Shown here: positions 3 through 54,258 of the stretch, piece after piece | Position numbering within the stretch: position 1 is the stretch's first letter | Layout: each line of letters begins with the position of its first letter | From: Candidatus Parcubacteria bacterium | Lineage (GTDB): Bacteria; Patescibacteriota; Minisyncoccia; SURF-38 | Assembly: GCA_003599335.1 (NCBI GenBank) | Contig: QZJN01000001.1 | Location: forward strand, 6,167-70,166 | Direction of reading: 5' to 3' | DNA length: 64,000 nt | Program-made: the position numbers and the translations under genes | The notes under the pieces: model-generated | What the model was told of the DNA's origin: nothing | Database searches by the model: none | What the model saw: only the letters and a program-made list of their open reading frames with translations

Positions 3-2045
3 AATACTTTGGTAATGAATGGAACTTCAAAGACTCTTACCAGCGCCGGCAACACGCTTCAAAATCTTACTTTGTCCGGGAGTATAACTTTGGCCAATGC
101 GACTCATACGATCGCTGGTAATTTAAATATGGCTGGCGGGACTATTACTGCCGGTTCTTCAACGATTTTAATGAGCGGAACTTCTAACAACATTACGGGT
201 GGGAGCGCTACATTGAACAACTTAACAATTGATCCCTCATCAGCCGGAACGATCACTCTGCAGACATCGGGCTTAACTGTTTCAGGGACTCTTGATGTGG
301 CAACTTCTGACATTCTTGCAATTAATTCCGGCTTGACATTAACTCATAGCGGTTCAACTTTGACTTTGAGCGGAACTATTTCTGGAGCCGGACGTTTAAC
401 TTACCGTTCTTCAACGGCATTTCCAACGATAGGCACGATTTCTTCAATTTTAAGATTTGATACGAGCGCGAATAATCAAACCATGTCGGCCAGAACTTAT
501 GGCGGAGCTTTGGAGGTTGATAATTCCAGCGGCACCAATGGTCGCACCGTAACCATGGCTACAAGCAGTGGTCAGACTATAACCGCTTCTAATTCTCTAA
601 CCATTTTATCTTCTGGAGGAGGTTCGGTAGAGCTTACTGGTTCTTCAAACAACCCAACAGTAAATATTGCGGGAGATATTACTTATACTTCTGGTGGGGG
701 TACTAAAACCATCACTACTGGTACCGGTGCTTGGACAGCTTCAGGAAACGTTAATTTTACCAACGGCGTTTTTGCACCAACTTCTGGAAATGTCTTTATA
801 ATGAGTGGCACAAATAAATTCGCTACGAGTTCTTCACAGAGTTTCTATGATTTACAGATTAATGGTTCCGTTACTCTCACAGATAATGCCGATATAAATA
901 ACGATTTTACTATTGGCGGTTCTGGCACGGCAACTTCTTCGGCTAAAGTGTTTATTGCCCGCAATTTCACAAATAGCGGCACATTTAACCATAACTCTGG
1001 AGTCGTTCAGTTTGATACTACGACACCATCCGATATTACAGGAACAACGAGTTGGTACAGCTTGCTTTCAACGACATCAAATAAAATACTTCGTTTTCAG
1101 GCCGGAGTAACCCAAACAATAAACGGAGTTTTGACGATTACGGGGGCTTCTGGTAATGAAATTTCTGTTCAATCATCGGCGACCGGCAGTAAGTGGTTTA
1201 TCAATCATCAGGGAACAGAATCTGTAAGTTTTGTTAGGTTGCGAGATTCCGGATGCCATGCTTCAAGCACAAACATAACCATCACTGATTCAATTGACGA
1301 TGGAAATAACGGTTCTTGCTGGGTTTTTCCGGCGGCTGATTTACAACAAATACATTATCGTTGGCGAAATGACGATGGTAATGAAGCGAGCGCCACGTTT
1401 GCTACAGCAACGGATTCGTCTTTAACAAACCAACCAAAGCGAGTTCTTATTAGATTGAGGGTTCAATTTTCTAACGAAGGAAATGCAACTTCTTCCGGAG
1501 AGCAGTATCGTCTTGAGTACGGAGAAGGAGCAAGTTGCGCAGGTGTTTCTACGTGGACGCCCTTAGTGAATACCGGTTCAGTTTCGGATCAACATTGGTC
1601 TTTGGTTAATACTTCTAACGTTTCCGATGGAACTGTTACTACAGATAACGCAGGTATCGTTAATGAAAACGCAAATTTTGTGGCCGGAGAATTTCGTTCG
1701 CAAACGAATCTTACGGGAAGTATAACTTTGTCTTCAACTCAATTTACGGAGCTTGAATGGGCTTTGTGGGCAGAACAGGCGGCAACTGATAATGGTGATT
1801 ATTGCTTCAGGGCCACAAATAACGGAAACATAACCAACTTCAGTTTCAATGTTTGGCCTCAGATACGAGTAAGGCCTGGCGGTGGTAAAGGGAGTGGGGG
1901 CGCTTCTGAAGGTTCTCCGCCGGCAACAACGGCAACCACAGGAGGTACCGGTCAGGGCGGGGGAGGATCTTCCGAAGGCGGATCTGGTGGCGGCGGTCAG
2001 ACTGGCGGAGGCACTGGACAGGGCGGTGGTGGAGGAGCGCCATAA
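3..2045 (+). CDS. Large Thr/Ser/Gly/Asn-rich surface repeat protein. The 5' end probably lies upstream of the window. Ends in a Gly-rich tail (GGxGQGGGG repeats).
   Basis: The ORF is open from the first in-frame codon of the window. Composition is extremely T/S/G/N-rich, typical of beta-helix or adhesin-like extracellular proteins. The last 60 aa are poly-Gly/Gln low complexity. Confidence 0.55.
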   Translation, partial: NTLVMNGTSKTLTSAGNTLQNLTLSGSITLANATHTIAGNLNMAGGTITAGSSTILMSGTSNNITGGSATLNNLTIDPSSAGTITLQTSGLTVSGTLDVATSDILAINSGLTLTHSGSTLTLSGTISGAGRLTYRSSTAFPTIGTISSILRFDTSANNQTMSARTYGGALEVDNSSGTNGRTVTMATSSGQTITASNSLTILSSGGGSVELTGSSNNPTVNIAGDITYTSGGGTKTITTGTGAWTASGNVNFTNGVFAPTSGNVFIMSGTNKFATSSSQSFYDLQINGSVTLTDNADINNDFTIGGSGTATSSAKVFIARNFTNSGTFNHNSGVVQFDTTTPSDITGTTSWYSLLSTTSNKILRFQAGVTQTINGVLTITGASGNEISVQSSATGSKWFINHQGTESVSFVRLRDSGCHASSTNITITDSIDDGNNGSCWVFPAADLQQIHYRWRNDDGNEASATFATATDSSLTNQPKRVLIRLRVQFSNEGNATSSGEQYRLEYGEGASCAGVSTWTPLVNTGSVSDQHWSLVNTSNVSDGTVTTDNAGIVNENANFVAGEFRSQTNLTGSITLSSTQFTELEWALWAEQAATDNGDYCFRATNNGNITNFSFNVWPQIRVRPGGGKGSGGASEGSPPATTATTGGTGQGGGGSSEGGSGGGGQTGGGTGQGGGGGAP

Positions 2046-2129: not shown

Positions 2130-2576
2130 ATGGAACAAATGGGACAAGAGGTAAAGCAAAGATGGTGGCAGCGGTTTCAAACCCCTCACAATGAATTTTT
2201 CCATTGGCTCTTTATAGCCGTTGGGGGAGTGTTTGTGCTTTTGTTGGTGTGGAACATTTTGAATGGGTTGCAGCCGCAACCGGACAGAAAAAAGGTTCAG
2301 GCGGTTTTTCTAACAAACGGGCAGGTTTACTTTGGGACTATGCAAGTTGTAAATCGTAATTACATAAAACTAGCAAGCGTTTATTATTTGCAGGTTCAAC
2401 AACCGGTTGAGTTGCAGTCTCAGGAAATTACAAATCAGCCAAACATTAATATAGTCAAATTGGGAGGAGAAATTCACGGGCCTGAAGATGCCATGTTTAT
2501 ACCGCAGGATCGTATTTTATTCTGGGAAAATTTGAGAGAGGACTCTAATATAGTGAAGCTCATTCAGAGACAATAA
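2130..2576 (+). CDS. Hypothetical single-pass membrane protein.
   Basis: 148-aa ORF with one hydrophobic segment (FHWLFIAVGGVFVLLLVWNIL) after a basic N-terminus. No recognisable motif. Confidence 0.45.
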   Translation: MEQMGQEVKQRWWQRFQTPHNEFFHWLFIAVGGVFVLLLVWNILNGLQPQPDRKKVQAVFLTNGQVYFGTMQVVNRNYIKLASVYYLQVQQPVELQSQEITNQPNINIVKLGGEIHGPEDAMFIPQDRILFWENLREDSNIVKLIQRQ

Positions 2577-2637
2577 TTCAAAATTGTATTTCCGAAGTCT
2601 TTAAAGGTTATTTTGGTAAAAATGGGAGGGTGGATAA

Positions 2638-3186
2638 ATGAAACCGGGCTTTATAGGAATAGTCATAATTTGGGTGGTGGTTATTTTTAATTTTTTTACA
2701 CCATTGGTTTTAGCGACAGAGTATACATCGCCGTCATTTAAGATTTTAGATCCGGTTTTGGATACCGGTGGAACCCAAAATTCAACATCAAGTTCGGGAA
2801 TTTTACAACTTGGCTCTGTTGGGGAAGTTTCTATTGGAAGGTCAAATTCTTCCAACTTTGAGTTAAGAGCAGGTTTTTTGTTTTTCCCCTCTCTTGTTGT
2901 TGCCACGCCGTCAGCGACAACAACCATTGTAGTTGGCCCTGGTTCTGGAGGAAGGGTTCCCCCGGGTATTTTAAAAAAGCAATTAAGGAGGCCTTCTTGC
3001 GTTGATTTAAACGACGATGGTGATGTCGGCCTGGCCGACGCATCAATTCAATTTTTTAATTGGCTTCCATCGGAAAAGGCCAGAGCCGGTTTTAAGTTGA
3101 AGGATAAAAGGCCGGATTGCAATAACGATAATTTAGTAAATATTATTGATTTATCAATAATGCTTTTTTGGTGGGATGAGAGGTAG
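2638..3186 (+). CDS. Secreted protein with a C-terminal dockerin-like domain made of two Ca-binding-loop/helix repeats.
   Basis: N-terminal signal/TM segment. C-terminus carries DLNDDGDVGLADASIQF and DCNNDNLVNIIDLSIML, matching the dockerin type I repeat pattern D-x-N-x-D-x-x-V-N-x-x-D-x-x-x-L. A GGGAGGG RBS precedes the ATG. Confidence 0.55.
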   Translation: MKPGFIGIVIIWVVVIFNFFTPLVLATEYTSPSFKILDPVLDTGGTQNSTSSSGILQLGSVGEVSIGRSNSSNFELRAGFLFFPSLVVATPSATTTIVVGPGSGGRVPPGILKKQLRRPSCVDLNDDGDVGLADASIQFFNWLPSEKARAGFKLKDKRPDCNNDNLVNIIDLSIMLFWWDER

Positions 3187-3220
3187 TATTTAGTAGTTAG
3201 TATTTTGTATTTAGTATTTG
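3185..3220 (+). repeat. Second copy of the TAGTATTT tandem array. It overlaps the annotated ATG 3205 of the next ORF.
   Basis: Sequence tagtatttagtagttagtattttgtatttagtatttg. Same core as the array at 2048-2078. Confidence 0.5.
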
Positions 3221-3222
3221 AG

Positions 3223-4359
3223 ATGAGCCAAAAAAACAAACTTTTAATAATCGGCATAATAGTTTTAGGTTTTTGCATTTTAGTTCCGGATGCTTTAGCA
3301 GCAAGGCTCTATTTTAAGAACGCTGCCGATACGGTTGTTGTTGGCTCAAGTAGACTTATTGAACTTAGACTTGATACAGAGGGTGAGTACATTAACGCCG
3401 GCGAAGTTGTTGTAAGTTATCAACCTGATTTTTTTGATGCCGTTGAGCTTTATGAAAGTTCTTCTATATTTGATATCTTTATTACCCGGCCCGTTATTTT
3501 GAACAACGAGAAAGTCTTTTTAAGTGGCGGGGCGACTAATGCCTTTCAAGGAGATGGTCTTATTTTAACAACGGCCTTTGTGGCAAAAAAAGTTGGCCAG
3601 ACTCAAATCAGCGCTTCTCAAGCAGAAATGATTATAGCTGATGGTCAGGGAAGTTTAGCCAACCTGAAAATCGAACCTTTAACAATTGATGTAGTAGAAG
3701 AGGATCCTCAAAATATAACCATATCCGGCAAGATCGCTCTTATCGTGTCTTCTCCAACTCATCCCGTGCAAACAAAATTTTATTCTTCAAACCAGGTTGT
3801 ATTGACTTGGAATTTGGAAGATGCTTACGAATATTCTTACGCTTTTTCCAGACAAATTGAAGAACCGGATGATATTCCAGAAGAGAGGGTTAGTTCTGTC
3901 AGTTTTTTTGATTTAGAAGATGGAATTTATTTTTTCAACCTTAAAGCCGTTGAAAAAGATACTGGCCAAAAAGCCGCATTTACGTCTTTTAGGGTGATGG
4001 TTGATACCGAGCCGCCAGAGGCCATAAAAGTTGCTTTTAGTAGGGTTGATGCGACTACCACGCTCGTTGCGGTTAACCCGCAAGATAAAACGAGCGGTGT
4101 TGATATTATAGAGTACAGGTTTGAAGGTGAGGAAAAATTTGAGAGACTTGATCAGTTTTATTTTGTAGCTCCACAAAGCGAGAAAATTATAATTAGGGTT
4201 TATGATAGAGCCGGCAATTTTACCGAACGAGTCTTTGAAGATAAAAAAGATTTGGTTTTTGGCTTATGGGGCTTGATCGGAGGCTTCCTAATAGGGATTA
4301 TTGTTTATTTTGCTGTTCAACATTTGGTAAGACGTAAGCACAATGTCGGTTTGAGCTAA
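3223..4359 (+). CDS. Membrane-anchored surface protein: signal peptide, cohesin-like domain, Fn3/Ig-like domains and a C-terminal TM anchor.
   Basis: Signal peptide LLIIGIIVLGFCILVPDALA. The N-domain (VVVGSSRLIELRLDTEGEYINAGEVVVSYQPDFFDAV) follows the cohesin pattern. It shares SPTHP...DGIYFFNL...VDTEPP and SGVDIIEYRF blocks with the ORF at 4378. C-terminal TM is GLWGLIGGFLIGIIVYFAV. The start was moved from 3205 to ATG 3223 because 3205 lies inside the intergenic repeat. Confidence 0.55.
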   Translation: MSQKNKLLIIGIIVLGFCILVPDALAARLYFKNAADTVVVGSSRLIELRLDTEGEYINAGEVVVSYQPDFFDAVELYESSSIFDIFITRPVILNNEKVFLSGGATNAFQGDGLILTTAFVAKKVGQTQISASQAEMIIADGQGSLANLKIEPLTIDVVEEDPQNITISGKIALIVSSPTHPVQTKFYSSNQVVLTWNLEDAYEYSYAFSRQIEEPDDIPEERVSSVSFFDLEDGIYFFNLKAVEKDTGQKAAFTSFRVMVDTEPPEAIKVAFSRVDATTTLVAVNPQDKTSGVDIIEYRFEGEEKFERLDQFYFVAPQSEKIIIRVYDRAGNFTERVFEDKKDLVFGLWGLIGGFLIGIIVYFAVQHLVRRKHNVGLS

Positions 4360-4377
4360 AAAGAGTTATAATAGATA

Positions 4378-5778
4378 ATGAAAATTCTGCAAAATAACAT
4401 TAGATATAAACTTAATAATAAGCGTTTGGCAACCGCGCGAGCCTTTATTTTGTGCTTTTTGAGCTTGGTTTTGTTTCTTTTACCGCTTAATGTTTTTGCA
4501 CAGAATTCCGACGCTTCTTTATATGCTCAACCGGCGAGTGGATCTATTACTCTTGGGAGCACTTTTAGAGTTTCAATATTTGTTAATACCGGGGGTAGGG
4601 ATATAAACGCGGTTGATGTTAAAGTAAATTTTCCTCCTGATAAACTTCAGGTTGTTTCTCCAACAGCCGGTCAATCCATAGTTTCTGTCTGGATTTCTCA
4701 ACCATATTTTTCCAATACCGACGGAGTTTTAAGATTTCAGGGTGGTATACCCAATCCTGGAATTAATACATCTTCTGGACTTATTGCTTCAATAGTTTTT
4801 AGAGCTCGTCAGTTTGGAGGAGCCCAAATAACTATTGATGATGATTCTAAAGTTTTGTTGAATGATGGTCTTGGGACCAATATTTTGTCAAAAACAGCCG
4901 GAGCCCAATTTAGTATTGTTTTGCCGCCTCCGGCTGGCCCTGAAGTTGTTTCTCCGACGCATCCGGATCAAACTCAATGGTACAAAAATAGGAACCCTCT
5001 TTTGAGATGGGGTTCTGTCGGGAGCGCGCAGGGATTTAGTTACAGTATTAATAAGGATCCTCTTTCTGAGCCAGATTTTTCATCAGAAGGAACAGGAACC
5101 CAGGTTGGTTTTGAGAATTTAAGTGATGGCATTTGGTATTTTCATTTAAGAGCTCTTGGTCCCTCGGGGCCAGGCCCGACAACTCATTTTGCTATTTTAA
5201 TTGATAGTACGCCGCCGGCCGAGTTTGTCCCAGATGTTAAACCAGAACGAAAAACCACGAGGAAAACTCCGATTATAAATTTTATTACAACCGACGCCGC
5301 TTCGGGGGTTGATCATTACGAGCTTAAGTTTATAGAGCAGGATAATCCACAAAATCCAGAACTGACACCATTTTTTATTGAGGCATCTTCTCCTTTTCAG
5401 GCTCCCGAACTTTCGCCAGGCATTTATGATGTTGTAGTCAGGGCTTTTGATAGGGCCCAAAATATAACAGATTCGGTTGTAAGACTTGAGATAATTGATC
5501 CTTTTATTAAGCCGATTTCGGAACTTGGTCTTACTTTTGGTGGTTATTTCATGCCTTGGTGGTTGGTTTATCTTATAGCCGATATTCTGATAGTTTTACT
5601 CGCTTTATTATTGTGGTTCTTGATCAAAAAACATCAATCTGTTGAACAGGTATTGGCCGATGGTTTGCATTGGATTGAGCATGAGATTGTTCATGATATT
5701 TCGTGGTTGAAGGATAGGTTGAGGGGTCGTAAACATATAGATTTCGATATAAGCGACAAGAAAGAAATTCGGCCATGA
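4378..5778 (+). CDS. Paralogous membrane-anchored surface protein with a cohesin-like domain, Fn3/Ig-like domains and a C-terminal TM anchor.
   Basis: Signal peptide, then SITLGSTFRVSIFVNTGGRDINAVDVKVNFPPDKLQVVS, which is strongly cohesin-like. Blocks SPTHPDQTQWY, DGIWYFHLRA, IDSTPP and SGVDHYELKF are shared with the ORF at 3223. C-terminal TM is WWLVYLIADILIVLLALLLWFLI. Confidence 0.55.
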   Translation: MKILQNNIRYKLNNKRLATARAFILCFLSLVLFLLPLNVFAQNSDASLYAQPASGSITLGSTFRVSIFVNTGGRDINAVDVKVNFPPDKLQVVSPTAGQSIVSVWISQPYFSNTDGVLRFQGGIPNPGINTSSGLIASIVFRARQFGGAQITIDDDSKVLLNDGLGTNILSKTAGAQFSIVLPPPAGPEVVSPTHPDQTQWYKNRNPLLRWGSVGSAQGFSYSINKDPLSEPDFSSEGTGTQVGFENLSDGIWYFHLRALGPSGPGPTTHFAILIDSTPPAEFVPDVKPERKTTRKTPIINFITTDAASGVDHYELKFIEQDNPQNPELTPFFIEASSPFQAPELSPGIYDVVVRAFDRAQNITDSVVRLEIIDPFIKPISELGLTFGGYFMPWWLVYLIADILIVLLALLLWFLIKKHQSVEQVLADGLHWIEHEIVHDISWLKDRLRGRKHIDFDISDKKEIRP

Positions 5779-6563
5779 TCAGAAACGATTTTATACATAA
5801 ATATAAATTTGGTATCGGATTCATTCTTACAATCTTCGTTTTAGGTTTTATTGGATTTTCTTTGGCGAGCGCTCAACAGCCATTGCAAATAAATATTTCT
5901 TTGCCCCAGCAAGAAACCAAAATTCAATCACCGACAATCACCGTTTTTCCTCCATCGTTGAATAACAAAGAAATACTTTATCTTGGCGGCACAACCGAGC
6001 CAGGATATACAGTTTTGGTATTTTTGCAGCGGGGAAAGGAGGCTTTGATAACAGCTCAAGTTCAGGCTGATGAGAGCGGAAGTTGGTTTTATGCCCACAA
6101 AGGATTTTTGGCAGAGGGAAAGTATTCTTTCTGGGTAAGGGCAAGAACCCAGGAGGGAATTTTGAGCGAGCCAACACAATCGGCAGAACTTAATGTTCTT
6201 GGAGAAGCTCTGGAAATAGGTTCTTACAGAATAGGCTTTAAGAGTCTTTATGTTTTTGCGGTAGGAGCCTTGAGTATAATTGTAACGATATTTATCATTG
6301 TTATACTGATTATTCATATAAGGATACAATCCAAAAAACGACGCTTGCAAAAAGAGGTTCTTGAGGTTCATAGTTCCGTAAAGAAGGGTTTTGAGATATT
6401 GAAGGATGATATTCACAAAGAACTTGATGTTTTGAGAGAGCTTGAGAAAAACAAACAACTTTCCCCTGAAGAAAAGGCTCGCCAAGCCAAATTACTCACA
6501 GATCTTGATTTTGCCGCTAGATATATTGAAAAGGAAGTTATTGACGTTGAAAAATTAATCTAA
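5775..6563 (+). CDS. Third related surface protein: signal/TM, Fn3-like domain, TM and a C-terminal coiled-coil.
   Basis: N-terminal hydrophobic segment. Motif SGSWFYAHKGFLAEGKYSFWVRARTQEGILSEP resembles the Fn3-like block of the two upstream genes. Internal TM VFAVGALSIIVTIFIIVILII, then a charged heptad-like tail. Start overlaps the upstream gene by 4 bp (translational coupling). Confidence 0.5.
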   Translation: MIRNDFIHKYKFGIGFILTIFVLGFIGFSLASAQQPLQINISLPQQETKIQSPTITVFPPSLNNKEILYLGGTTEPGYTVLVFLQRGKEALITAQVQADESGSWFYAHKGFLAEGKYSFWVRARTQEGILSEPTQSAELNVLGEALEIGSYRIGFKSLYVFAVGALSIIVTIFIIVILIIHIRIQSKKRRLQKEVLEVHSSVKKGFEILKDDIHKELDVLRELEKNKQLSPEEKARQAKLLTDLDFAARYIEKEVIDVEKLI

Positions 6564-13885: not shown

Positions 13886-16800
13886 ATGTCTATTGCAAAA
13901 AGCAAAACGAGCCGAAAGGTTATCAATTCAGCCCTTTCAGCCGTTTTAGCACTCACCATAACCGTTTGGTTAGGTGGTTTTGCCTTTGTGGCGCCACGCG
14001 CAGAAGCACAAAGTTTGGCTGATTCAATTGCTGCTATTCAAGCGCAGATTGCCGCCCTGACTGCTCAGCTCAATTCTCTTTTGGCTTCATCTGGTTCAAC
14101 CTCAACTACAGTTGGAGGTTTGACCAAGAATTTAAGCCAAGGAGTAACTGATCCTGAAGTCAGTACACTGCAATCTGGTTTGAAGCAGGATCCTTCGGTT
14201 TATCCTGAAGGATTGGTAACGGGATACTTTGGTGGTTTAACCAGAGCTGCCGTTATCCGCTTCCAAGAAAAGTATGCTTCTGAAGTTTTGGCCCCAGTTG
14301 GTTTGTCGTCCGGAACCGGCTTTGTCGGTTCTTCGACAAGGGCAAAATTCAACGCTTTGTATGCAGGCACTGGCACAGGAACAGGATCTGGCCCGGTTGT
14401 TCCAACTGGCAGCCAAATTTTGGTTTCTTTGGCAGCTAATACACCTGCAGCCGGCGTTGCTCCAAAGCTTGCCTCCAATGTTCAATTTTTGGCAGTCAAT
14501 TTAACAGCTCCGTTATCCGGCGCTGTCAGAGTTGATTCCATTATTGTTCATCGAGCAGGCGCTGGTTCTCCATCAGATTTCGACAACGTTTATCTTTATG
14601 AAGGAGATACTCGTTTGACGACAGGAAGATCAGTAAACTCAAGCACAAACAATGCTGAGTTTCATTCGTTGAACTTAAACATCAATGCTGGTCAAACCCG
14701 AACAATTTGGGTTACAGCTGATTTGGCTACTGGTGCGGGAGCTGGTAACCAGAACTACTTTGAGATTGTTTCAGCCTCTTCGGTGGTTGGTTCAGCCTCT
14801 GTAGCTGGTGCTTTCCCAATCCGCGGCAACGCGGTTTCGGTTGCTAATGCTTCAGCCGGCCAGGTAACACTGGATCAAGCGGTTGATGGCACCAACCCGA
14901 AAGTTGGCGAAAAGAACCGAAGCATCGGTTCATTCCGCGTTACAGCTTCTTCGACTGAAGATGTTGAGTTGAGACGAATTGCGTTATTCCAAGCAGGTTC
15001 AGTAAGCCGATCGGCTTTGCAGAATATGAAGCTGAGATACACAGGAACAGATGTTGCATCGGTTGCGGGAGTAAACGACAAAGACCTTGCGGTTTTCGTC
15101 TTTACAACTCCTTTCTTGATAGAGAAGGGAAATTCACGCACCTTTGAAATCTTTGTTGATGTCGCAGCTGGTGCTAAGAATAACGACACCATTAAATTGT
15201 ATGTTGACGAAAAAACAGATGTTTACGCCGTTGGTCGCACATATGGCCGAGGCGTCGCTGTTGTCAATACAGCACTTGATGGTTCGGTTGCAGACACAGA
15301 TGAAGTGGATGTAACAATTGAGGGTGGTCAATTGACCATTACCTTCAACGGCCCAGCCGCCAAAGATTTGGCGCCGGATGCAGAAGATGTGGAGCTTTAT
15401 AACTTCACATTAGCCGCCGGTGTTAATCTTGAGGTTCGCGATTTGGCCCTTGCTGCAACAAGCAGCGTCAACATTAACGATTTTGATGATTTCAAGATTG
15501 TTAACGTTACAAAGGGTATTGTCGTGATGGGTCCAACAGATACATCTGCTGATGCAAGCGCTGCAAACATTACTTTCACAGATCGTTTCACAATGAATGC
15601 TGGCGAGACCAATGTTTTCTCGGTAAGAGCAGACGTGGCTCCAACAGCAGACGTTATTGACGGTCAAACCGTGAGAGTAACCTTGGGTCAGGGAACCGGT
15701 CCTTTTGGTTCAAATTCGGTCAGGAACTTGGATAACAACCAGTTCATTTCCGACATTGTGCCTTCGGGAGATATCACTGGAAACACCCACACAATTCGTG
15801 CAACAGCCTTGACATTGTCTTTGGCTGGTACACCAACTTCACAGAGCTTTGTTCGCGGAACAGGCAATGTGGATATGGTTGGCTTTAACTTTAAAGCTGG
15901 TGTTGCCCAGGATATAACCCTTACCTCGATCAAGGTAACTGGATATGGCGATGACGATACTTCCGGTATCTTCTCAGCCGGTATCTTGTTTGGCGCTTCA
16001 TCTTCAACAGTCAGCGGTAGGACGAATTCTGTTTGGTTGGTTGACCAATCAAACGGCTCGACAGTTGCTGGCCCAGAAGCTGTAAACAGCACCACAGGCG
16101 AAGCCCAGTTTAGCAGCATGAACTTCACAGTTCCTGCAGGCCAAACCAAGACTTTGGTTGTGAGATCAAATCTTGATGCTTCAGCGTTAGCCAACAGCAA
16201 CACTGACCGCATTAAGTTTGATATCGCCGCAGTTGGCGATGTTGTTGCCCGCGATCCGCAGGGTAACTCTGTTTCTGTCGGTTCGGCTGCTCCAAACAGC
16301 ACCACCGCCGATTCAGGAACTCGCATCAGCGTTGTTGACACAGGCTCTATCAGCGTAGCTTTGGCTCCAGATGACACCGAATCAGAAGCTGGTTTGGTTG
16401 TTGCCGGAAAGAGCAACGTTGTTATTGCCAAGTATCGTTACACAGCGCAAAACGAGGAATTGAAAGTTACCAAAGTGCAATTTTCAGTTGCTTCGGGCGC
16501 GTTGGATGAAGTTACACAGCTTTCAGTTTGGGATGGATCTTCGATGCTTGCGAGCATTACACCGACCCTTTCTGGTTCTTCCGGCTCGGCAGCCTTTACC
16601 AACTTGAACTTTGTTGTGCCTAAGGATGCTTCAAAGACTTTGACCGTCAAGGCCAATTTGAACACCACATCGGCTGGCGCCGATACAGGTGATGAAATTC
16701 AAGCTGTCCATGACCAGGCTAACTTTGAGGCTCGCGGTACAGCGGCTGGTTCAAGCACTGTGCTGACAAGCTCCGGAGTTGCTGCAACCGGTCTTAACGC

Positions 16801-17350
16801 GAATACCAAGTATTTCCGCAAGACCGTTCCAACGATCACTTTTGCGGCAGGCGATGCCTTGCTGACAACCGGCGAGAAATCCTTGATGAAGATCACCATT
16901 GCGGCTGATGCTTCTGAACAGGTTTCAGTCCGATCGTTTGAGTTTACGCTTTCAGTTAGCAACGCGACATTCGACACAACCAACGATAATTTCAAGGTTC
17001 GTGAGAGTGGCAACTTGCTGACAAGCACAAGCACCAACACGCAGGCTGCTGCCAACATTACTTTGACATCTGAATCAACCATTCCGGCAGGCGGTTCCAA
17101 GACTTATGAAATCTTGGGTACTGTTACCGGCGCTGGTACTGGTTCGGCTTCAGTAACAATCAAGATGGAACAATCTACAACAGAGGTTGGTCCTTCTAAC
17201 TGGAGCGCGGTCAATAGTGATGCTGGTACGCTTGATTTGGTCTGGTCTGACAATTCAGCCATTCCACATGGTTTGACTTCTGCAGACTGGTACAACGGCT
17301 TTAAGGTAAAGAACTTACCTTCGGGCACAATGGTGTTGAGCAAGAACTAA
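13886..17350 (+). CDS. Giant (1154-aa) cell-surface protein with an N-terminal peptidoglycan-binding domain and long Ig/Fn3-like T/S/A/G/V-rich repeats.
   Basis: N-terminal signal/TM (VLALTITVWLGGFAFVAPRAEA). PG_binding_1-like motif (VSTLQSGLKQDPSVYPEGLVTGYFGGLTRAAVIRFQEKYA). About 1000 aa of low-complexity beta-rich sequence. Flanked by a 750-bp leader and a strong terminator. Confidence 0.7.
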   Translation: MSIAKSKTSRKVINSALSAVLALTITVWLGGFAFVAPRAEAQSLADSIAAIQAQIAALTAQLNSLLASSGSTSTTVGGLTKNLSQGVTDPEVSTLQSGLKQDPSVYPEGLVTGYFGGLTRAAVIRFQEKYASEVLAPVGLSSGTGFVGSSTRAKFNALYAGTGTGTGSGPVVPTGSQILVSLAANTPAAGVAPKLASNVQFLAVNLTAPLSGAVRVDSIIVHRAGAGSPSDFDNVYLYEGDTRLTTGRSVNSSTNNAEFHSLNLNINAGQTRTIWVTADLATGAGAGNQNYFEIVSASSVVGSASVAGAFPIRGNAVSVANASAGQVTLDQAVDGTNPKVGEKNRSIGSFRVTASSTEDVELRRIALFQAGSVSRSALQNMKLRYTGTDVASVAGVNDKDLAVFVFTTPFLIEKGNSRTFEIFVDVAAGAKNNDTIKLYVDEKTDVYAVGRTYGRGVAVVNTALDGSVADTDEVDVTIEGGQLTITFNGPAAKDLAPDAEDVELYNFTLAAGVNLEVRDLALAATSSVNINDFDDFKIVNVTKGIVVMGPTDTSADASAANITFTDRFTMNAGETNVFSVRADVAPTADVIDGQTVRVTLGQGTGPFGSNSVRNLDNNQFISDIVPSGDITGNTHTIRATALTLSLAGTPTSQSFVRGTGNVDMVGFNFKAGVAQDITLTSIKVTGYGDDDTSGIFSAGILFGASSSTVSGRTNSVWLVDQSNGSTVAGPEAVNSTTGEAQFSSMNFTVPAGQTKTLVVRSNLDASALANSNTDRIKFDIAAVGDVVARDPQGNSVSVGSAAPNSTTADSGTRISVVDTGSISVALAPDDTESEAGLVVAGKSNVVIAKYRYTAQNEELKVTKVQFSVASGALDEVTQLSVWDGSSMLASITPTLSGSSGSAAFTNLNFVVPKDASKTLTVKANLNTTSAGADTGDEIQAVHDQANFEARGTAAGSSTVLTSSGVAATGLNANTKYFRKTVPTITFAAGDALLTTGEKSLMKITIAADASEQVSVRSFEFTLSVSNATFDTTNDNFKVRESGNLLTSTSTNTQAAANITLTSESTIPAGGSKTYEILGTVTGAGTGSASVTIKMEQSTTEVGPSNWSAVNSDAGTLDLVWSDNSAIPHGLTSADWYNGFKVKNLPSGTMVLSKN

Positions 17351-17497: not shown

Positions 17498-19729
17498 ATG
17501 TACAACCAGCTTTCTTATCAAGGCAAGGTTTTGTTTTGGATAATAACCTCTTTGGTTTGGGCGCTTTTATTTGCGCCTTTTATTATTTCTTCACAGACAC
17601 TTTTTCCTTTTCAGGTCGGCAAGGCAATTTATTACAGGATTTTGGTTGAAATAATATTGTTTTTCTACGTCTGGTTGATATTGATTGAGCCGGCAGCCAG
17701 ACCCAAGATCAGTAAGCTTTTTTGGGCAGTTTTTATTTACCTTGGTATACTTTTGCTTTCAACGTTATTTAGTATTCACCCTTATCGTAGTTTTTGGGGA
17801 GATATTGAAAGGATGGAGGGGGTTTTTGGCATTTTGCACGGCGGAGCTTTGTTTTTAGTCCTTTTCAGTCTTTTCAGAAGAAAAGGCGATTGGCTTAAAT
17901 TTTTCAAAGTTTCTTTGTTTTTCAGTTTTTGGGTGGCTATTTATTCTTTACGTCAGAAATACGGATCCGGAGTTTTTGAGGCCGGTTCGATACAGCCGGG
18001 ATCAACTCTTGGCAATCCGGCTTTTAACGCGACGTATGTTTTGTTTCAGATGTTTTTTGCAGCGATCATTTTTTGGTGGGATCGCAATGTTTGGTGGAGA
18101 CTTTATGCCGTTTCGGCTTTTGTCTTGAATTTTATAGTTTTAATACTCACGGCCATAAGGGGAGCGCAGGTCGGTCTTTTTGCCGCTTTAGTGGTTATGG
18201 TTATTTTACTCGCAATTTATTGCACCCGTTCTGCAAGGGCAAGGGTGGCCACCGCAGCTATTCTTGTTGGTTTGTTTTTGATACCAACCGCATTGTTTTT
18301 AGGGAGAGACTCCGGGTGGATAAAAAGTATGCCGCTTGCTTTTCAGCGTTTAGCCAATATATCTCTTGAAAGAGACGCCACATTGAATACGCGCATTATT
18401 TCTTTAGGAATATCTTGGGATGCATTTAAGGAAAACCCAATTTTAGGTTATGGGCCAGAGCATTTTAGAGTTGGCTATAACAAATATTTCAATCCAAAGC
18501 ATTTAACTTTTGAGCAAGCTTGGTTTGATCGAGCACATAATAAAATTTCCGATGTTTTAGTTATGACGGGGGGACTTGGTCTTATAAGTTATCTTGCAAT
18601 TTTTGCTTTGGGTTTTTTGGGCCTCATTGGGTATATAAGACGCTCAGAACAGCAAAGAGATAGAGTTTTGGGAAGCTTGGTTGTCGGTCTTGGTGTTGCC
18701 TATTTTGTTCAAAATATATTCCTTTTTGATATGCCAATGAGTTACATTCTTTTCTTTTCAAGTTTGGCATTTGTTGGGTATTTAACCGATTCAAATAATT
18801 CCCAAAATCAACAAATTGAAGGCTCCAAAAAAGGACCAACCGGATCGTTAAAATCTGTTCATTATTTAATTTTGATAGTCGTTGGGGCTGGGGTGATTAT
18901 TGCCATAGGTTGGGGCAACTGGAAGCCCTATAACACCTCTTATTGGGGTAGGCAGGGTCTTGGAGCTGCAACGCCACAGCAAAGTTTGGATGGTTATAAA
19001 AAAGCCCTTGAATCTGGGGGTTATCCAGCTTCGGAGGTTTTGAGGGTTATGACGGATACCCTTTTGAATTCCGGTGGGGCGCGTTTAGTCGAGTGGAATG
19101 AATTATTTTATTACACAACCAATGAGATGGAAAAGTTTCTGGCAATAGAGCCCCTTGATCCGAGACAATTTATTCGTTTAGGAAAAGTTTACAACGAACA
19201 TACTGCCTTGGAGCCCCAATACACCAAAGACGCCGAAGAAGCCCTTCTTAAAGCTATTGAGCTTGCTCCAAAGCGCCCAGACGCTTATTACGAGCTTGGG
19301 GTGACTTATCTGCAAAGAAACGAAACCGAAGCCGGCCTTGCTTTGTTTCGTAAAGCTTCAGAATTTAATCCCGATAATGCTAGGGGGCATTGGACTTTAG
19401 GTTTGGCATTGATGATAGTTCAAAGGTTTGACGATGGTGTTAGAGAAATAGAGAAAGCCATTGAACTTGGTTATGAGTGGCGAACGCCGGCTGACATGAA
19501 TAATCTAGCAAGAATTTATGGAGTGGTTGGTCGTTTTGATAAGGTTGCCGAGGTTTATGAAGCGGCGATTGAAATTTATTCAAACGAACCAAGTTATCAC
19601 GCAAATTTAGCGAGTGTTTACAGACAACTTGGCAGGCTTGAAGAGGCAAAAAGAGAAGCTCAAAGAGCAGCCGAGCTTGATCCAAATTTTAAAGCAGAAG
19701 CAGAGAAGTTTATTCAAGAGCTTCAATAA
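17498..19729 (+). CDS. Polytopic O-antigen ligase/polymerase-like (Wzy_C family) membrane protein with C-terminal TPR repeats.
   Basis: Ten or more TM helices in the first ~450 aa, including the Wzy_C-like loop region. The C-terminal ~250 aa hold TPR-like repeats (AYYELGVTYLQRNE, ARGHWTLGLALM, YHANLASVYRQLGRLEEA). Confidence 0.7.
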   Translation: MYNQLSYQGKVLFWIITSLVWALLFAPFIISSQTLFPFQVGKAIYYRILVEIILFFYVWLILIEPAARPKISKLFWAVFIYLGILLLSTLFSIHPYRSFWGDIERMEGVFGILHGGALFLVLFSLFRRKGDWLKFFKVSLFFSFWVAIYSLRQKYGSGVFEAGSIQPGSTLGNPAFNATYVLFQMFFAAIIFWWDRNVWWRLYAVSAFVLNFIVLILTAIRGAQVGLFAALVVMVILLAIYCTRSARARVATAAILVGLFLIPTALFLGRDSGWIKSMPLAFQRLANISLERDATLNTRIISLGISWDAFKENPILGYGPEHFRVGYNKYFNPKHLTFEQAWFDRAHNKISDVLVMTGGLGLISYLAIFALGFLGLIGYIRRSEQQRDRVLGSLVVGLGVAYFVQNIFLFDMPMSYILFFSSLAFVGYLTDSNNSQNQQIEGSKKGPTGSLKSVHYLILIVVGAGVIIAIGWGNWKPYNTSYWGRQGLGAATPQQSLDGYKKALESGGYPASEVLRVMTDTLLNSGGARLVEWNELFYYTTNEMEKFLAIEPLDPRQFIRLGKVYNEHTALEPQYTKDAEEALLKAIELAPKRPDAYYELGVTYLQRNETEAGLALFRKASEFNPDNARGHWTLGLALMIVQRFDDGVREIEKAIELGYEWRTPADMNNLARIYGVVGRFDKVAEVYEAAIEIYSNEPSYHANLASVYRQLGRLEEAKREAQRAAELDPNFKAEAEKFIQELQ

Positions 19730-47523: not shown

Positions 47524-50166
47524 ATGCTGAATTTTTTATTCGGAGATTCAAACGAGAGGGTGATAAAAAGACTCCGTCCAATTGCCGAACGTATTGGGGA
47601 GTTTGAACAAAAAACCGAAAAGTTATCTAATGAAGAATTAAAACAAAAAACTCAAACCTTTAAGGGAAGTTTGAGTTCGGGGATATCTTTGGAAGATATT
47701 TTGCCAGAGGCTTTTGCTCTTGTTAGAGAAGCCGCTAAAAGAACTTTGAAACAAAGACACTTTGATGTCCAGCTTATGGGCGGGGTGGTTTTGCATGAAG
47801 GTAATATAGCCGAGATGAAAACCGGCGAAGGCAAGACTTTGGTTGCGACTTTATCTGCCTATCTGAATTCTTTATCGGGAGAAGGAGTTCATGTTGTGAC
47901 GGTCAATGACTATTTGGCCAGACGCGATAGCGTTTGGATGGGACAGATTTATCATATGCTCGGCCTTAAGGTTGCATGCATAAATCATGACGCCTCATAT
48001 CTTTATGATCCGACACATATTGAAAAACAAGAAGAAAAAGACAAAGAACGCGATATTTTAGGCAGCTTCAAGGTTATATATGAATTTTTAAAGCCGATAT
48101 CGCGCAAGGAGGCCTATGAGGCTGATATTGTTTATGGAACAAATTCGGAATTCGGATTTGATTATTTAAGAGATAATTTAAGTTATGATAAAAACCAAGT
48201 CGTTCAACGGGGACACCATTACGCAATTGTTGATGAAATTGACTCAATTTTAATTGATGAGGCGCGAACACCCCTTATTATTTCAGCGCCAGACGAAGAG
48301 GCCGGCGAGCTTTATCGTAAATTTGCACAAGTGGCTAAGTATCTTAAACCGGGGACCCATTATCTCGTTGATGAAAAACGTCGGGCGACAACAATTACCG
48401 ACGAAGGCATAGAGGAGGCCCAAAGAAGAGCAGGAATTGGAAATATCTATGAAGCTGGGAATATTCGCTATGCCCACCATTTGGAGCAGGCGGTTCGGGC
48501 TGAAGCTTTATTTAAGCGTGATAAGGATTATGTGGTAAGAGATGGCGATATAGTGATAGTTGATGAATTCACTGGTAGGCTTTTGCCGGGCAGGCGTTAT
48601 TCAGAGGGGCTTCATCAGGCTATTGAAGCAAAAGAGGGTGTTAAAGTGCAAAGAGAATCAAAAACAGTAGCAACAATAACTTTTCAGAATTATTTCAGAT
48701 TATATAAGAAACTTTCCGGAATGACGGGTACGGCTTTAACCAGCGCCCAGGAATTTCATAAAGTTTACAATATTGAAGTTGTGGTAATACCTCCAAATAA
48801 GGCCTTGGCGCGCAAGGATTTGTCAGATGTTATTTATAAAACAGAACAGGCTAAATGGCGTGCCGTTGTAGAAGAGATAAAGTTGCGTCAGCAAACGGGT
48901 CAACCTGTTTTGTGCGGTACAACTTCAATTGAAAAAAACGAAAAATTGAGTGCCATGCTTAAAGTTGCCGGTGTGCAGCACAAAGTTTTAAACGCAAAAA
49001 ATCACGAACAGGATGGTGAAATTATTGCTCAAGCTGGCAAAGCCGGCGCGGTGACTGTCGCGACAAATATCGCTGGAAGAGGAGTTGATATTATCCTTGG
49101 GGGAAATCCGGCTTCGGCCGAGGAAGCCGAGCTGGTGAAAGCCGCAGGCGGCCTACATGTTATTGGAACTGAAAGGCACGAAGCCAGGCGTATTGATAAC
49201 CAACTTCGCGGGCGGGCCGGCAGGCAAGGAGACCCAGGTTCATCGCAATTTTTTGTTTCTTTGGAAGACGATGTTATTAGGGTTTTTGGCGGTGAACGCA
49301 TTAAGGGGTTTATGGAGACGCTGGGTCTGCCAGAAGATGTTCCGATTACTCATGGCATGGTTAGTAAGGCAATTGAATCAGCTCAAGCCAAAATAGAATC
49401 TTTTAATTTTGACGCCCGAAAATATGTTCTTGAGTTTGACGACGTAATGAACAAGCAGCGTCAGTATCTTTATAAATTACGTAGAGATATCGTTGAATCA
49501 GCATCGCAAAACCCTCAAAAAATAAAAGAGCTTGTTTTGGAATATATAAAATCTCAAACAAGAAAGTTGGTTGAATTTCACTTTTCTCAAGAGGGAGGGT
49601 TAAACAAAGACGAATTTAATAAGGTTTTGGTTGCTTGGGCAGGAGATCGGGGCTGGCAGAATATAGTTGAGAAAAATAATAGTGATTTAGAAGCGATCAT
49701 AGAAAGACTAACGGAAAAGTTTAATATCTTATATGAACAAAAAGAAAAAGAAGCCGGAAAAGATATTTTTTTTCAAACACAGAAAAACCTTTTGTTGCAG
49801 GTTATAGACACTTTATGGACCGAGCATATAAATAATATGGAGCATTTAAGAGATTCGGTGCGCTTGAGAGCTTACGGGCAAAGAGATCCCCTTGTTGAAT
49901 ACAAAAAAGAAGGACTAGAATTGTTTAAGCAATTAAAAGAAGCAATTCCGGGATTATTTGTGGCAAATATATTTAAAGTAGGAATGGCGAGTGGAACACA
50001 GAAAGCACAACAACAAGCCGTAGGCTATAAACCTGTAAGCCATAAGAGTTCTACGGCTTACGGCTCGACGTCTGTTAAGGCTGGGGACAAAAAAGTTGGT
50101 CGGAATGATCCGTGCTGGTGCGGTAGTGGTAAAAAGTTCAAGAAGTGTCACGGCAAGGGGAACTAG
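47524..50166 (+). CDS. secA: Preprotein translocase ATPase SecA.
   Basis: DEAD-like motor (KTGEGKTLVATL, DEID). PPXD and helical scaffold domains. C-terminal zinc-binding tail CWCGSGKKFKKCHG. Confidence 0.95.
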   Translation: MLNFLFGDSNERVIKRLRPIAERIGEFEQKTEKLSNEELKQKTQTFKGSLSSGISLEDILPEAFALVREAAKRTLKQRHFDVQLMGGVVLHEGNIAEMKTGEGKTLVATLSAYLNSLSGEGVHVVTVNDYLARRDSVWMGQIYHMLGLKVACINHDASYLYDPTHIEKQEEKDKERDILGSFKVIYEFLKPISRKEAYEADIVYGTNSEFGFDYLRDNLSYDKNQVVQRGHHYAIVDEIDSILIDEARTPLIISAPDEEAGELYRKFAQVAKYLKPGTHYLVDEKRRATTITDEGIEEAQRRAGIGNIYEAGNIRYAHHLEQAVRAEALFKRDKDYVVRDGDIVIVDEFTGRLLPGRRYSEGLHQAIEAKEGVKVQRESKTVATITFQNYFRLYKKLSGMTGTALTSAQEFHKVYNIEVVVIPPNKALARKDLSDVIYKTEQAKWRAVVEEIKLRQQTGQPVLCGTTSIEKNEKLSAMLKVAGVQHKVLNAKNHEQDGEIIAQAGKAGAVTVATNIAGRGVDIILGGNPASAEEAELVKAAGGLHVIGTERHEARRIDNQLRGRAGRQGDPGSSQFFVSLEDDVIRVFGGERIKGFMETLGLPEDVPITHGMVSKAIESAQAKIESFNFDARKYVLEFDDVMNKQRQYLYKLRRDIVESASQNPQKIKELVLEYIKSQTRKLVEFHFSQEGGLNKDEFNKVLVAWAGDRGWQNIVEKNNSDLEAIIERLTEKFNILYEQKEKEAGKDIFFQTQKNLLLQVIDTLWTEHINNMEHLRDSVRLRAYGQRDPLVEYKKEGLELFKQLKEAIPGLFVANIFKVGMASGTQKAQQQAVGYKPVSHKSSTAYGSTSVKAGDKKVGRNDPCWCGSGKKFKKCHGKGN

Positions 50167-51755
50167 AGGATAAAGTCGATCTCCACACGGCCTTCTCCTG
50201 CGCGAATTTCCTTGATAATACTGCGTAGAATCAACTTTCGCTCATCCAGCTCCATAGCCGCCCAAGCAGTATCAAAATCTCTCATCGAAGCCACCAGTTT
50301 TTGGATAGAGGCACCTTTTTGTGCGGTCAGGGACGATAGTGTCGCCAAGCGATCCCGCTCCGTGCGGCTTTTCCCAGTTTCCTCTCGAATTTTCTCAATT
50401 CGCGCTTGGTATTCCTCGATCGTGGAAATACCTCTTTCGTAGGCATCGTGTTGGCGCTGTATCTTGATTGGTTCGAGTGCTATCTCTCGCTCTAAGCGTA
50501 CAATCTCTTTTTCTCGATCCTGCTCGTCTTGCCCCTTTTCCTCGTAGACGATCTTTTCCTGAACTTTAGGATGCGAGTATAGGTTTTTTATGTGATCGAG
50601 TACATCAGCTTCCAATCTCGTGGCGCTCATTACTCGTTGTGAGCAAATGCCTTTGTATTTGTAGCCAGTGCAGATGTACTCAAATGTGATCGTGTTTTTC
50701 CAATTTGGATTTTTCTTTGATCTTGAATGGTATCGTTTTTGGTATCCCACGCCATTTCCGCATCGGATGCATTTAGCGAGGCCTGTAAGGAGCCCGTGTG
50801 ATCGTGCAGCTGCCCCGCGTGCGCTTCTTGTGCGACCGTTACGGATCTCTTGAACTTTATTAAATAGAGGCGGATCGATTATTGGTGTGTGGTTTCCATC
50901 GCCAATGTATCCGAGTTTGCCTCTGCGTCGCCACTCTTTTGTTTTCCTATATTCAGCGTGTCGCCAGCCCCACCACACTTTGCCCATGTAGGTTGGATTG
51001 CACAAAATGTATCGAAGAGCGGCTTTTGACCAGTCGCCACCTCTGCGAGCTTTCCAGCCCTTGCGATTCATTTCAATGACTATCTTCCTGTCTCCTATGC
51101 CTCGTGCGTATTCGTTGAAGATATATTTCACCCGCGTGGCTTCTTCTTCGTTCACAACCACTGTTCTCTTGATTCGTGCGCCGTCTAGTTCTCGTTTAAC
51201 CTCGTAACCATAGGGAACTCGGTTTGGAATGCTTCCAGCTTTTGCTTTTCCCAGCTTTCCCATTTTCATACGCTGGATAATTGCCTTACGCTCCATGTCC
51301 GATCTTAGGTCGGACATTGCCTCAACCATTGTTCCCATTTGGTCTTCGTCGGGTTCATACTCACCAGTTGATTTTGGTTCAAAGGGCGTATTGAGGGCGT
51401 AAGTTTGAATGCTTAATTCTTTGAGTTCGCCTCTTATAACGCCAGCGGCATCTTTGTTTCTGGCAAAGCGATCATAATCTTTGACCACGATGAGATCGAA
51501 TTTGTGTTCACGCGCATCTCGCAACATTGACTGAAGACCGTTTCGCTCCTCGGTAAGGTGACCGCTGATGCCCTCGTCTTTGTATTCTTGGATAAACGAC
51601 CATCCCTTTTCGTTGATGCTTTTGTGACAGCGTTCCAGCTGATCGGGAATGGACGCTTTGCCCTGGGCCTGTTCTTGGGTGCTTACGCGAACGTAAATGA
51701 CCGCTCGTAAGACTTGGGGCTTCTTGTCGATATTCGGTTGGGTCAGATTAAGCAT
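50163..51755 (-). CDS. Large serine recombinase (resolvase/invertase catalytic domain, recombinase domain and zinc ribbon).
   Basis: N-terminus AVIYVRVSTQEQ (catalytic Ser). The ~530-aa length, the central recombinase domain, and Cys clusters (CIRCGNGVGY ... CTGYKYKGICS) are typical of phage/ICE serine integrases. Confidence 0.85.
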   Translation of the reverse strand: MLNLTQPNIDKKPQVLRAVIYVRVSTQEQAQGKASIPDQLERCHKSINEKGWSFIQEYKDEGISGHLTEERNGLQSMLRDAREHKFDLIVVKDYDRFARNKDAAGVIRGELKELSIQTYALNTPFEPKSTGEYEPDEDQMGTMVEAMSDLRSDMERKAIIQRMKMGKLGKAKAGSIPNRVPYGYEVKRELDGARIKRTVVVNEEEATRVKYIFNEYARGIGDRKIVIEMNRKGWKARRGGDWSKAALRYILCNPTYMGKVWWGWRHAEYRKTKEWRRRGKLGYIGDGNHTPIIDPPLFNKVQEIRNGRTRSARGAAARSHGLLTGLAKCIRCGNGVGYQKRYHSRSKKNPNWKNTITFEYICTGYKYKGICSQRVMSATRLEADVLDHIKNLYSHPKVQEKIVYEEKGQDEQDREKEIVRLEREIALEPIKIQRQHDAYERGISTIEEYQARIEKIREETGKSRTERDRLATLSSLTAQKGASIQKLVASMRDFDTAWAAMELDERKLILRSIIKEIRAGEGRVEIDFIL

Positions 51756-54257: not shown

Positions 54258-54258
54258 T

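Follow-up and report, generated by a model that had tools for sequence, protein, structure and literature searches.

The window analysed here, a 64-kb stretch of DNA from a Candidatus Parcubacteria metagenome-assembled genome (MAG), lies on an 82.9-kb contig. The source was identified by exact protein matches, and it agrees with the reduced-genome symbiont that had been proposed from an earlier reading of the sequence (the original prediction). Close to the start of the window, at the positions where that reading had placed a secreted dockerin protein and three anchored cohesin relatives, are four forward-strand open reading frames (ORFs), which we call O1 to O4. We describe evidence that they encode an enzyme-free cohesin–dockerin module, which probably serves to anchor something at the cell surface. 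The four genes, with protein lengths in amino acids (aa), are as follows.

2638–3186, forward strand: O1, 182 aa, dockerin protein; locus tag C4553_00020 (exact match)
3205–4359, forward strand: O2, 384 aa, membrane-anchored cohesin protein
4378–5778, forward strand: O3, 466 aa, membrane-anchored cohesin protein; locus tag C4553_00030 (exact match)
5775–6563, forward strand: O4, 262 aa, Big_13-type Ig domain, transmembrane helix and cytoplasmic helical tail

Gaps of 18 nt separate O1 from O2 and O2 from O3, and O3 and O4 overlap in an ATGA, bearing out the translational coupling that had been proposed for the shortest of the putative relatives (O4). A Shine–Dalgarno sequence, GGGAGG, lies 8 nt 5' of O1. 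The listed start of O2 is a TTG at 3205; an in-frame ATG at 3223 (MSQKNKLL...) gives a more typical signal peptide and is possibly the true start. Scans for promoters and terminators gave counts equal to the shuffled expectation and were uninformative.

O1 consists of a signal peptide, a segment of about 60 aa that we term the N-module, a linker and a C-terminal dockerin. Its parts, all on the forward strand, are these.

O1 residues 1–25: signal peptide
2713–2895, O1 residues 26–86: N-module, three S-[ST]-S-[FY]-x-[LIV] beta-strand repeats
2989–3183, O1 residues 118–182: dockerin, two Ca loops with a helix after each
3004–3039, D123–D134: Ca loop 1 (D123-L-N-D-D-G-D-V-G-L-A-D134), helix at residues 132–140
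3115–3150, D160–D171: Ca loop 2 (D160-C-N-N-D-N-L-V-N-I-I-D171), helix at residues 169–177

Both loops fit the EF-hand-like pattern D1-x-N3-x-D5...D12 exactly. They belong to a tandem duplication of about 22 residues, in which 9 of 22 positions are identical between the repeats and both repeats carry D.SI..F.W. Because the two repeats are internally symmetric, a dual binding mode would be possible. Residues D123, N125, D127, D134, D160 and D171 are invariant in the O1 family. Among the ORFs of ≥90 aa in the six reading frames of the window, the strict Ca-loop pattern occurs just twice, at O1 residues 123 and 160, and O1 is the sole dockerin within the window. The pattern is thus not a chance one, and the original description of O1 as a secreted protein ending in two dockerin loop–helix repeats holds.

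Profile searches and structure prediction point the same way. Dockerin_1 (PF00404) is the top Pfam family for all nine O1-family members considered (O1 and eight homologs; best E = 2.7e-9), and the homologous dockerin segments of loci L008 and L007 score 31.6 and 23.1 bits against Pfam. An O1 profile search retrieved at least 253 proteins, nearly all with a C-terminal PF00404 annotation. Against the PDB, the O1-family profile has 14 matches; 11 of them are cellulosomal dockerins, which fill the top eight places (1daq first, E = 2.7e-4). In the AlphaFold2 (AF2) model of O1, residues ~110–180 have predicted local distance difference test (pLDDT) values of 83–94, and the sole meaningful PDB match found by Foldseek is the dockerin 2y3n_B (probability 1.00, target-normalised TM-score 0.71, 64 columns); the small size of the domain accounts for a modest E-value (0.045). 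By profile and by model, the C terminus of O1 is predicted to be a divergent but genuine dockerin. Two conserved cysteines accompany the loops: C121 (~2998–3000) lies two residues ahead of loop 1, and C161 (~3118–3120) occupies position 2 of loop 2. Remoter members of the O1 family, such as P0009, also have a Cys near each repeat. This arrangement suggests a C121–C161 disulfide clasp between the repeats.

The domains of O2 and O3, again on the forward strand, were assigned as follows.

4510–4929, O3 residues 45–184: cohesin, after the signal peptide
O3 residues 188–278 and 279–374: first and second Ig/FnIII domains (190–275 and 286–372 in the AF2 model; Foldseek)
From 5557, O3 residues 394–451: transmembrane segment and cytoplasmic helix, following a stalk (AF2 model)
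3301–3654, O2 residues ~33–150: cohesin, after the signal peptide (O3-family cohesin hidden Markov model (HMM), E = 8.5e-14)
O2 residues ~181–268: first Ig/FnIII domain (Ig1 HMM, E = 1e-18)
O2 residues 286–341: second Ig-like domain, OmpL47-type
4252–4317, O2 residues ~350–371: C-terminal transmembrane anchor

O3 passes the Pfam Cohesin threshold (PF00963; 27.9 versus 24.1 bits) over residues 60–173. It has at least 674 homologs in Parcubacteria lineages, nearly all annotated with PF00963, and six solved cohesins rank first when the O3-family profile is compared with the PDB; 4uyp_A is among the matches of this profile. The AF2 model of O3 (mean pLDDT 86) shows the nine-stranded beta-sandwich (jelly-roll) of cohesins, and residues 46–181 superpose on dozens of solved cohesins with TM-scores of 0.70–0.79 and root-mean-square deviations of 2.3–3.5 Å over ~147 columns (Foldseek). 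The best structural match is the cohesin–FnIII pair of Clostridium perfringens GH84C (2w1n, E = 2.3e-11). O2 aligns to O3 with 27% identity over 332 aa (E = 8e-31) and is, by this similarity, a true O3 paralog. Of the two outcomes named as refuting the original prediction, a lack of profile matches and wrong predicted folds, neither occurred: profile matches exist, at the family level for the dockerin and above the Pfam cutoff for O3, and the predicted folds are a cohesin jelly-roll in O3 and a dockerin in O1.

O4 is a different kind of protein, with the following parts on the forward strand.

O4 residues ~71–131: Big_13-type Ig domain, preceded by a signal peptide
O4 residues ~157–183: transmembrane segment, followed by a cytoplasmic helical tail

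Orthologs of O4 reach 26.9 bits against Big_13, where the cutoff is 27, and the cytoplasmic tail is probably a coiled coil. O4 had been counted among three cohesin/Fn3 paralogs. That description stands for O2 and O3; for O4 it was rejected, as BLAST against O2 and O3 gave E-values of 0.12–0.48 and no cohesin HMM matched. O4 is nevertheless found joined to O3 elsewhere. In the 702-aa protein P0053, residues 36–424 align to O3 (48%) and residues 451–700 to O4 (34% identity, E = 3e-37), and a fused O4 unit is present in 59 of the 120 best O3 homologs. Protein P0012 similarly fuses O2-like and O3-like units. The fusions have the topology out–TM–in–TM–out–TM–in, where TM is a transmembrane segment, consistent with that of the separate proteins. 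Because of these fusions, O4 appears to be functionally tied to O3.

We then asked how the module is arranged in other genomes, using the cohesin alignment to scan one genome per GTDB species. This yielded 132 O3 relatives, of which the 80 best loci were analysed. One caveat here is that the locus statistics are based on stop-to-stop ORFs and home-made HMMs (E ≤ 1e-4), with families defined from few seeds. The 80 loci come from Colwell-, Lipton-, Nealson-, Doudna-, Portnoy-, Buchanan- and Jorgensen-bacteria, Moraniibacteriota, Minisyncoccia and others; some 'Saccharibacteria' labels in GTDB records were assigned by depositors and may be loose. In four close relatives, the order seen in the window is kept, namely O1 to O4 preceded by two further genes, one for a giant protein and one for a small membrane protein that we call S148 (both described below).

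The dockerin and cohesin genes go together over a much wider range. Among the 57 species-level loci with at least 1.5 kb of sequence upstream of the first cohesin ORF, a same-strand ORF ending in a dockerin lies upstream of that cohesin ORF in 54 (95%), and the gap between the two is −66 to +86 nt in 45 of these 54. There is one dockerin gene per one to six cohesin genes in a locus. Six distant loci, three found by way of their cohesins and three by way of their dockerins, all have a dockerin-ending gene upstream of two or three cohesin-Ig(-Ig) genes. In four of these loci, nothing separates the dockerin gene from the cohesin genes. The other two have further genes in between: a Wzy_C gene in L008 and, over ~2.5 kb in L011, three small genes on the forward strand and one on the opposite strand. 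The L011 cluster, which comprises dockerin, cohesin, Pam-pilin-like and WxLIP-like genes, is on a contig of 1.19 Mb, together with genes for COX1, COX2 and UbiA. Because these three are unusual for the candidate phyla radiation (CPR), L011 may represent either an occurrence of the module outside the typical Parcubacteria or an atypical aerobic lineage.

The N-module connects O1 to a known appendage system. Pam pili, whose components are PamT, PamA/B/E, PamC/D and PamR, have been described in Saccharimonadia and Microgenomatia, and not in Parcubacteria, in a preprint that makes no mention of cohesin or dockerin (Troman et al. 2026, 10.64898/2026.03.03.709456). The O1 N-module matches positions 6–78 (of 241) of the NCBIfam PamT profile NF058579 with E = 4e-9, and the same N-terminal stretch of PamT is matched by 10 of 10 other N-module proteins tested, or 11 of 11 counting O1. 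At 36.2 bits, O1 is well below the equivalog cutoff of 240, and the likeness reflects a shared module, not orthology. An exhaustive profile search recovered the N-module from at least 1,572 representative clusters, and in nearly all matches listed it begins no later than about residue 60. Of the 143 top matches, 103 end in a dockerin, and about half of the remainder are fragment-like proteins of <150 aa. The spacer between N-module and dockerin ranges from none to ~300 aa and, where Pfam-annotated, contains Big_6 Ig domains; O1 represents the minimal form. The N-module directly follows the signal peptide, and the dockerin occupies the extreme C terminus whatever the cargo, which in the loci examined consists of Ig-like domains (Big_6, Big_13), Cys-rich repeats, a 'YRW' domain or the N-module. 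O1 is therefore most likely a two-ended adaptor, more than a plain dockerin protein.

Two configurations of the module can be distinguished, and they are mutually exclusive: chaperone genes occur in 37 loci and N-modules in 12, with no overlap. In configuration (i), seen in 37 of the 54 loci, the dockerin protein lacks the N-module and its gene is immediately 3' of a gene for a WxLIP/PapD-like membrane chaperone. The chaperone-like protein is ~310–380 aa long, has a C-terminal transmembrane segment and usually carries an 'AEPGGHY' motif, and its family profile matches Enterococcus EfmWxLIP1 (E = 2.4e-5) and also Pfam WxLIP_PGBD. Genes for Thr/Ser-rich proteins usually precede the chaperone gene; four of seven such proteins match the Pam-pilin C-domain NF058581 (best E = 9.5e-22). 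Giant ORFs with a C-terminal Pam-pilin domain also occur in this configuration. In configuration (ii), represented by 12 loci and by this window, the dockerin protein bears the N-module, and no chaperone-like gene was found in up to 9.4 kb of upstream sequence. Two configuration (i) loci have, in addition, a second dockerin gene with an N-module (L013:2-370 and L040:554-1255), accompanied by S148 in L040 and situated upstream of a giant gene with a Pam-pilin domain. A single cluster can therefore contain both adaptor types, with fibre genes between them.

The unit reaches further upstream than the original prediction had it. It takes in the S148 gene and probably the giant gene as well.

2130–2576, forward strand: S148, small transmembrane protein upstream of O1
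9–2045, forward strand: C-terminal 678 aa of a giant repeat protein, its gene cut by the window start

S148 has an N-terminal transmembrane helix and a conserved ectodomain of ~100 aa with the highly conserved motif QAVFLTNGQVYFG...YYLQV...NLVKLGGELHGPED...ILFWE. Pfam, NCBIfam and a PDB profile search yielded no significant match for it; the best were repeat regions of glucansucrases, at E ~0.1. Of the 15 N-module genes with enough upstream sequence, 7 are directly preceded by an S148 homolog, as are those of the four close relatives, and no locus without an N-module gene has an S148-like gene. S148 may be a partner or a chaperone of the N-module.

The giant protein, which in relatives measures 1,388–2,129 aa, is a secreted repeat protein without a Pfam or NCBIfam match. 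It carries a 'YRWRNDDG' domain and, at its C terminus, a long tail rich in Gly. Its gene is syntenic in close relatives, and homologs lie upstream of the N-module loci L091, L087, L048 and L061. Weak similarity (E = 0.006 for L006:6182-7111) links the 'YRW' domain to the cargo domains of two dockerin proteins from other Parcubacteria, L006:6182-7111 and L007:5707-7107. The giant protein is a probable displayed cargo or fibre.

With moderate confidence, we infer that the dockerin of O1 plugs into the cohesins of O2 and O3, anchoring something at the cell surface. The genes from 2130 to 6563, probably with the giant gene at 9–2045, would form one operon specifying a surface anchoring device of a monoderm CPR bacterium. 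O2 and O3 would be type-I membrane proteins whose two Ig/FnIII spacers lift the cohesin socket off the membrane. O4 would join O3 there, the three together making up a membrane scaffold with cytoplasmic helical tails. Once exported by Sec and relieved of its signal peptide, O1 would bind the cohesin of O2, of O3 or of both in a Ca-dependent manner, while its N-module would engage a partner, most likely by beta-strand complementation. This partner would probably be a surface fibre, the giant protein or the S148 ectodomain. The net effect would be that an extracellular filament or giant adhesin is held non-covalently at the cytoplasmic membrane. In configuration (i), the same dockerin–cohesin pair, at the 3' end of a Pam-type operon, plausibly anchors that pilus. 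The notion of a self-contained, non-cellulosomal surface docking system, put forward in the original prediction, is supported by the profiles, the folds, the adjacency in 54 of 57 loci and the absence of enzymes.

Several observations weigh against this proposal. O1 taken alone is below the Pfam Dockerin_1 cutoff (10.2 versus 22.9 bits), and O2 itself has no Pfam cohesin match. Gene adjacency speaks for functional linkage, not for physical binding. The N-module is modelled by AF2 with pLDDT values of 50–60 and without a structural match, which makes its binding mode a guess; such low confidence fits a segment whose folding requires a partner, without proving it. No homolog of a Pam pilin or of the chaperone was found in the 64-kb window by BLAST or with HMMs from related loci, and the same holds for the close relatives, so that a 'fibre' is not assignable in this lineage. 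Nor can a pilin or dockerin domain be recognised in the giant protein. Furthermore, PamT has been placed at the tip of the pilus and not at its base (10.64898/2026.03.03.709456), which is awkward for a PamT-like module that, being dockerin-tagged, would be membrane-proximal.

Alternatively, O2–O4 might be Pam-type assembly or anchor proteins like PamR, their cohesin fold a generic nine-strand beta-sandwich, for instance a platform for strand exchange, and the O1 dockerin a Ca-stabilised cap. The genes would then be linked through a shared pathway, with no contact between the two domains. Clostridial type I dockerins have a canonical Ser-Thr at recognition positions 10–11, unlike the hydrophobic residues of O1 (L-A and I-I), and binding between dockerin and cohesin is something that we infer. 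The module is, moreover, found inside Pam-type operons in 37 loci, the N-terminal domains of Pam pilins are nine-strand beta-sandwiches, and PamR consists of two FnIII domains and a transmembrane segment (10.64898/2026.03.03.709456). However, two families of mutually binding domains at 95% adjacency across deep lineages make co-option without interaction unparsimonious. In addition, the dockerin keeps its place at the extreme C terminus irrespective of cargo, as in bona fide dockerin-tagged proteins, and the Ca-ligand positions are invariant. These data render the generic-sandwich explanation unlikely.

The original prediction suggested that the docking system might serve cell–cell or host attachment, which could mean that the cohesins bind dockerin-like or other ligands of the host or that released O1 bridges to the host surface, with the pairing taking place between cells. 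CPR bacteria are typically epibionts, and an essential dockerin-domain envelope protein of a Saccharibacterium has been speculated to target host glycans (PMC10633639). Nonetheless, both partners are encoded in one operon and co-inherited, which fits a pair in the same envelope better than a pair acting in trans, and no host ligand is indicated by the data. A pairing between cells is thus improbable. Because the module belongs to a Pam-type pilus operon in most Parcubacteria, anchoring of a surface fibre is indicated as the immediate role, and attachment would follow as a downstream consequence.

Least probable is a cellulosome-like display, in which O1 would be one of many clients and the cohesin scaffoldins would recruit dockerin-tagged hydrolases encoded elsewhere, for the breakdown of host or environmental polysaccharides. 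In its favour, both domain types are genuinely homologous to cohesins and dockerins, and the hundreds of CPR dockerin proteins retrieved with the O1 profile differ in their N-terminal cargo, so that several clients are conceivable; our view of the genome is, besides, limited to 64 kb. Yet no dockerin protein in the loci examined has a catalytic domain or a carbohydrate-binding module (CBM), the stoichiometry of one dockerin gene per one to six cohesin genes is inverted relative to cellulosomes, and the near-obligate adjacency indicates a dedicated partner. A cellulosome proper was likewise rejected, as no glycoside hydrolase (GH), carbohydrate esterase, polysaccharide lyase or CBM is present in O1–O4, their neighbours or the other large ORFs of the window.

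Docking of O1 on the membrane-anchored cohesins can be compared with several known systems. Cohesin–dockerin pairs work outside cellulose degradation in C. perfringens, where they operate in toxin and glycosidase complexes, and the Ruminococcus bromii amylosome is another non-cellulosomal case. As in O3, the cohesin of C. perfringens GH84C (2w1n) is directly followed by an FnIII domain. The C. perfringens cohesins and dockerins are domains of secreted toxins and glycoside hydrolases and join enzyme to enzyme, whereas the cohesins here are membrane-anchored and enzyme-free and the dockerin protein has no catalytic domain. Anchoring scaffoldins, such as OlpA, OlpC and SdbA of Clostridium thermocellum and ScaC of Acetivibrio cellulolyticus, offer a closer parallel in that a surface cohesin captures a dockerin partner, and O3 superposes on cohesins of this class (4dh2, 3ul4, 4uyp) with TM-scores of 0.72–0.79. 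These scaffoldins attach to the Gram-positive wall by surface-layer homology (SLH) domains or sortase and hold enzyme-loaded scaffoldins. By contrast, O2 and O3 end in a transmembrane segment and a cytoplasmic tail, and no SLH domain, LPXTG motif, CBM or GH is present in the locus.

Pam pili are a further point of comparison. Besides the homology of the O1 N-module to the N-terminal ~78 positions of PamT, O2 and O3 appear to share the layout of PamR, with two FnIII/Ig domains and a C-terminal transmembrane segment; this comparison is by description, and there is no NCBIfam match. In the 37 configuration (i) loci, the module follows genes for NF058581 pilins and membrane-anchored chaperone-like proteins. 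The locus nevertheless appears not to be a Pam operon in the strict sense, because pilin and chaperone genes are absent here and O1 falls far below the PamT cutoff. The chaperone-like family of configuration (i) also recalls the WxL operons of Enterococcus and Lactobacillus (EfmWxLIP1, PDB 9i25/9i1y), which are, similarly, multi-gene surface-complex loci of monoderms with C-terminally membrane-anchored components. WxL operons are not known to contain a cohesin or dockerin, and the WxLIP-like gene is absent from this window.

A further-reaching reading, which we put forward tentatively and rate as doubtful, is that the cohesin–dockerin pair provides the membrane attachment of both Pam-type pili and related giant fibres across Parcubacteria, and that PamT-like N-module proteins are base adaptors, not tip pilins. 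Such adaptors would take hold of the fibre through beta-strand complementation and connect it to the membrane-anchored cohesin scaffold. As part of the same tentative reading, S148 would be a dedicated mini-chaperone or receptor standing in for the WxLIP/PapD-like chaperone in configuration (ii). If true, the Pam assembly model would have to be revised, and this would be the first cohesin–dockerin pair shown to anchor a pilus.

A literature search returned no paper linking cohesin or dockerin with Parcubacteria and none describing the module, apart from the passing mention of the essential Saccharibacterium protein (PMC10633639). Databases already label CPR proteins as 'cohesin domain-containing' or 'dockerin type I domain-containing'. 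Dockerin-like repeats have also been reported in giant proteins of Omnitrophota, which are unrelated. What is distinct here is the combination of membrane-anchored cohesins, an enzyme-free locus, inverted stoichiometry, a two-ended adaptor and integration with Pam genes.

The remainder of the window contains a few features of related or general interest. Downstream of O4 are housekeeping genes (SIMPL, RNase_H_2-like exonuclease, HtrA and ClpB). A 743-aa IctB/O-antigen-ligase-like membrane protein with C-terminal TPR is encoded 11 kb downstream (17498–19729, forward strand), and a similar Wzy_C+TPR gene (L008:4503-6857) is found inside a dockerin–cohesin cluster; these genes hint at a link to surface glycan or glycosylation. 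Two large forward-strand ORFs, at 13886–17350 (1,154 aa) and 59417–62320 (967 aa), have no NCBIfam match and may encode further surface proteins. The former is G+C-rich (0.47), like the giant surface protein. A large CcrB/XisF-like serine recombinase (50163–51755, reverse strand) adjoins a complete type I restriction–modification system.

54220–56613: hsdR
56622–58046: hsdM
58043–59236: hsdS

The 50163–59236 region, of raised G+C content (0.44–0.48 versus ~0.38), probably represents a mobile defence island. In the part of the genome outside the 64 kb, there could be further dockerin clients or Pam genes.

Much of bacterial diversity belongs to the CPR (Patescibacteria), whose members live attached to other cells. 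It is little understood by what means they build and anchor surface appendages, given that they have no outer membrane, no wall anchoring of the sortase type and no classical ushers. Our data suggest that, in Parcubacteria, the cohesin–dockerin 'plug and socket' has been recruited as a dedicated, operon-encoded and membrane-anchored device, in which the one would bind the other. The device is present in at least 132 species-level genomes, coupled either to Pam pilus genes or to a PamT-like adaptor module. The dockerin (~70 aa) and the cohesin (~140 aa) are of a size that suits binding assays, and the pair may offer a new orthogonal specificity for protein engineering. For the organisms themselves, the module provides a testable hypothesis of how pili and fibres might be anchored in monoderm ultrasmall bacteria.

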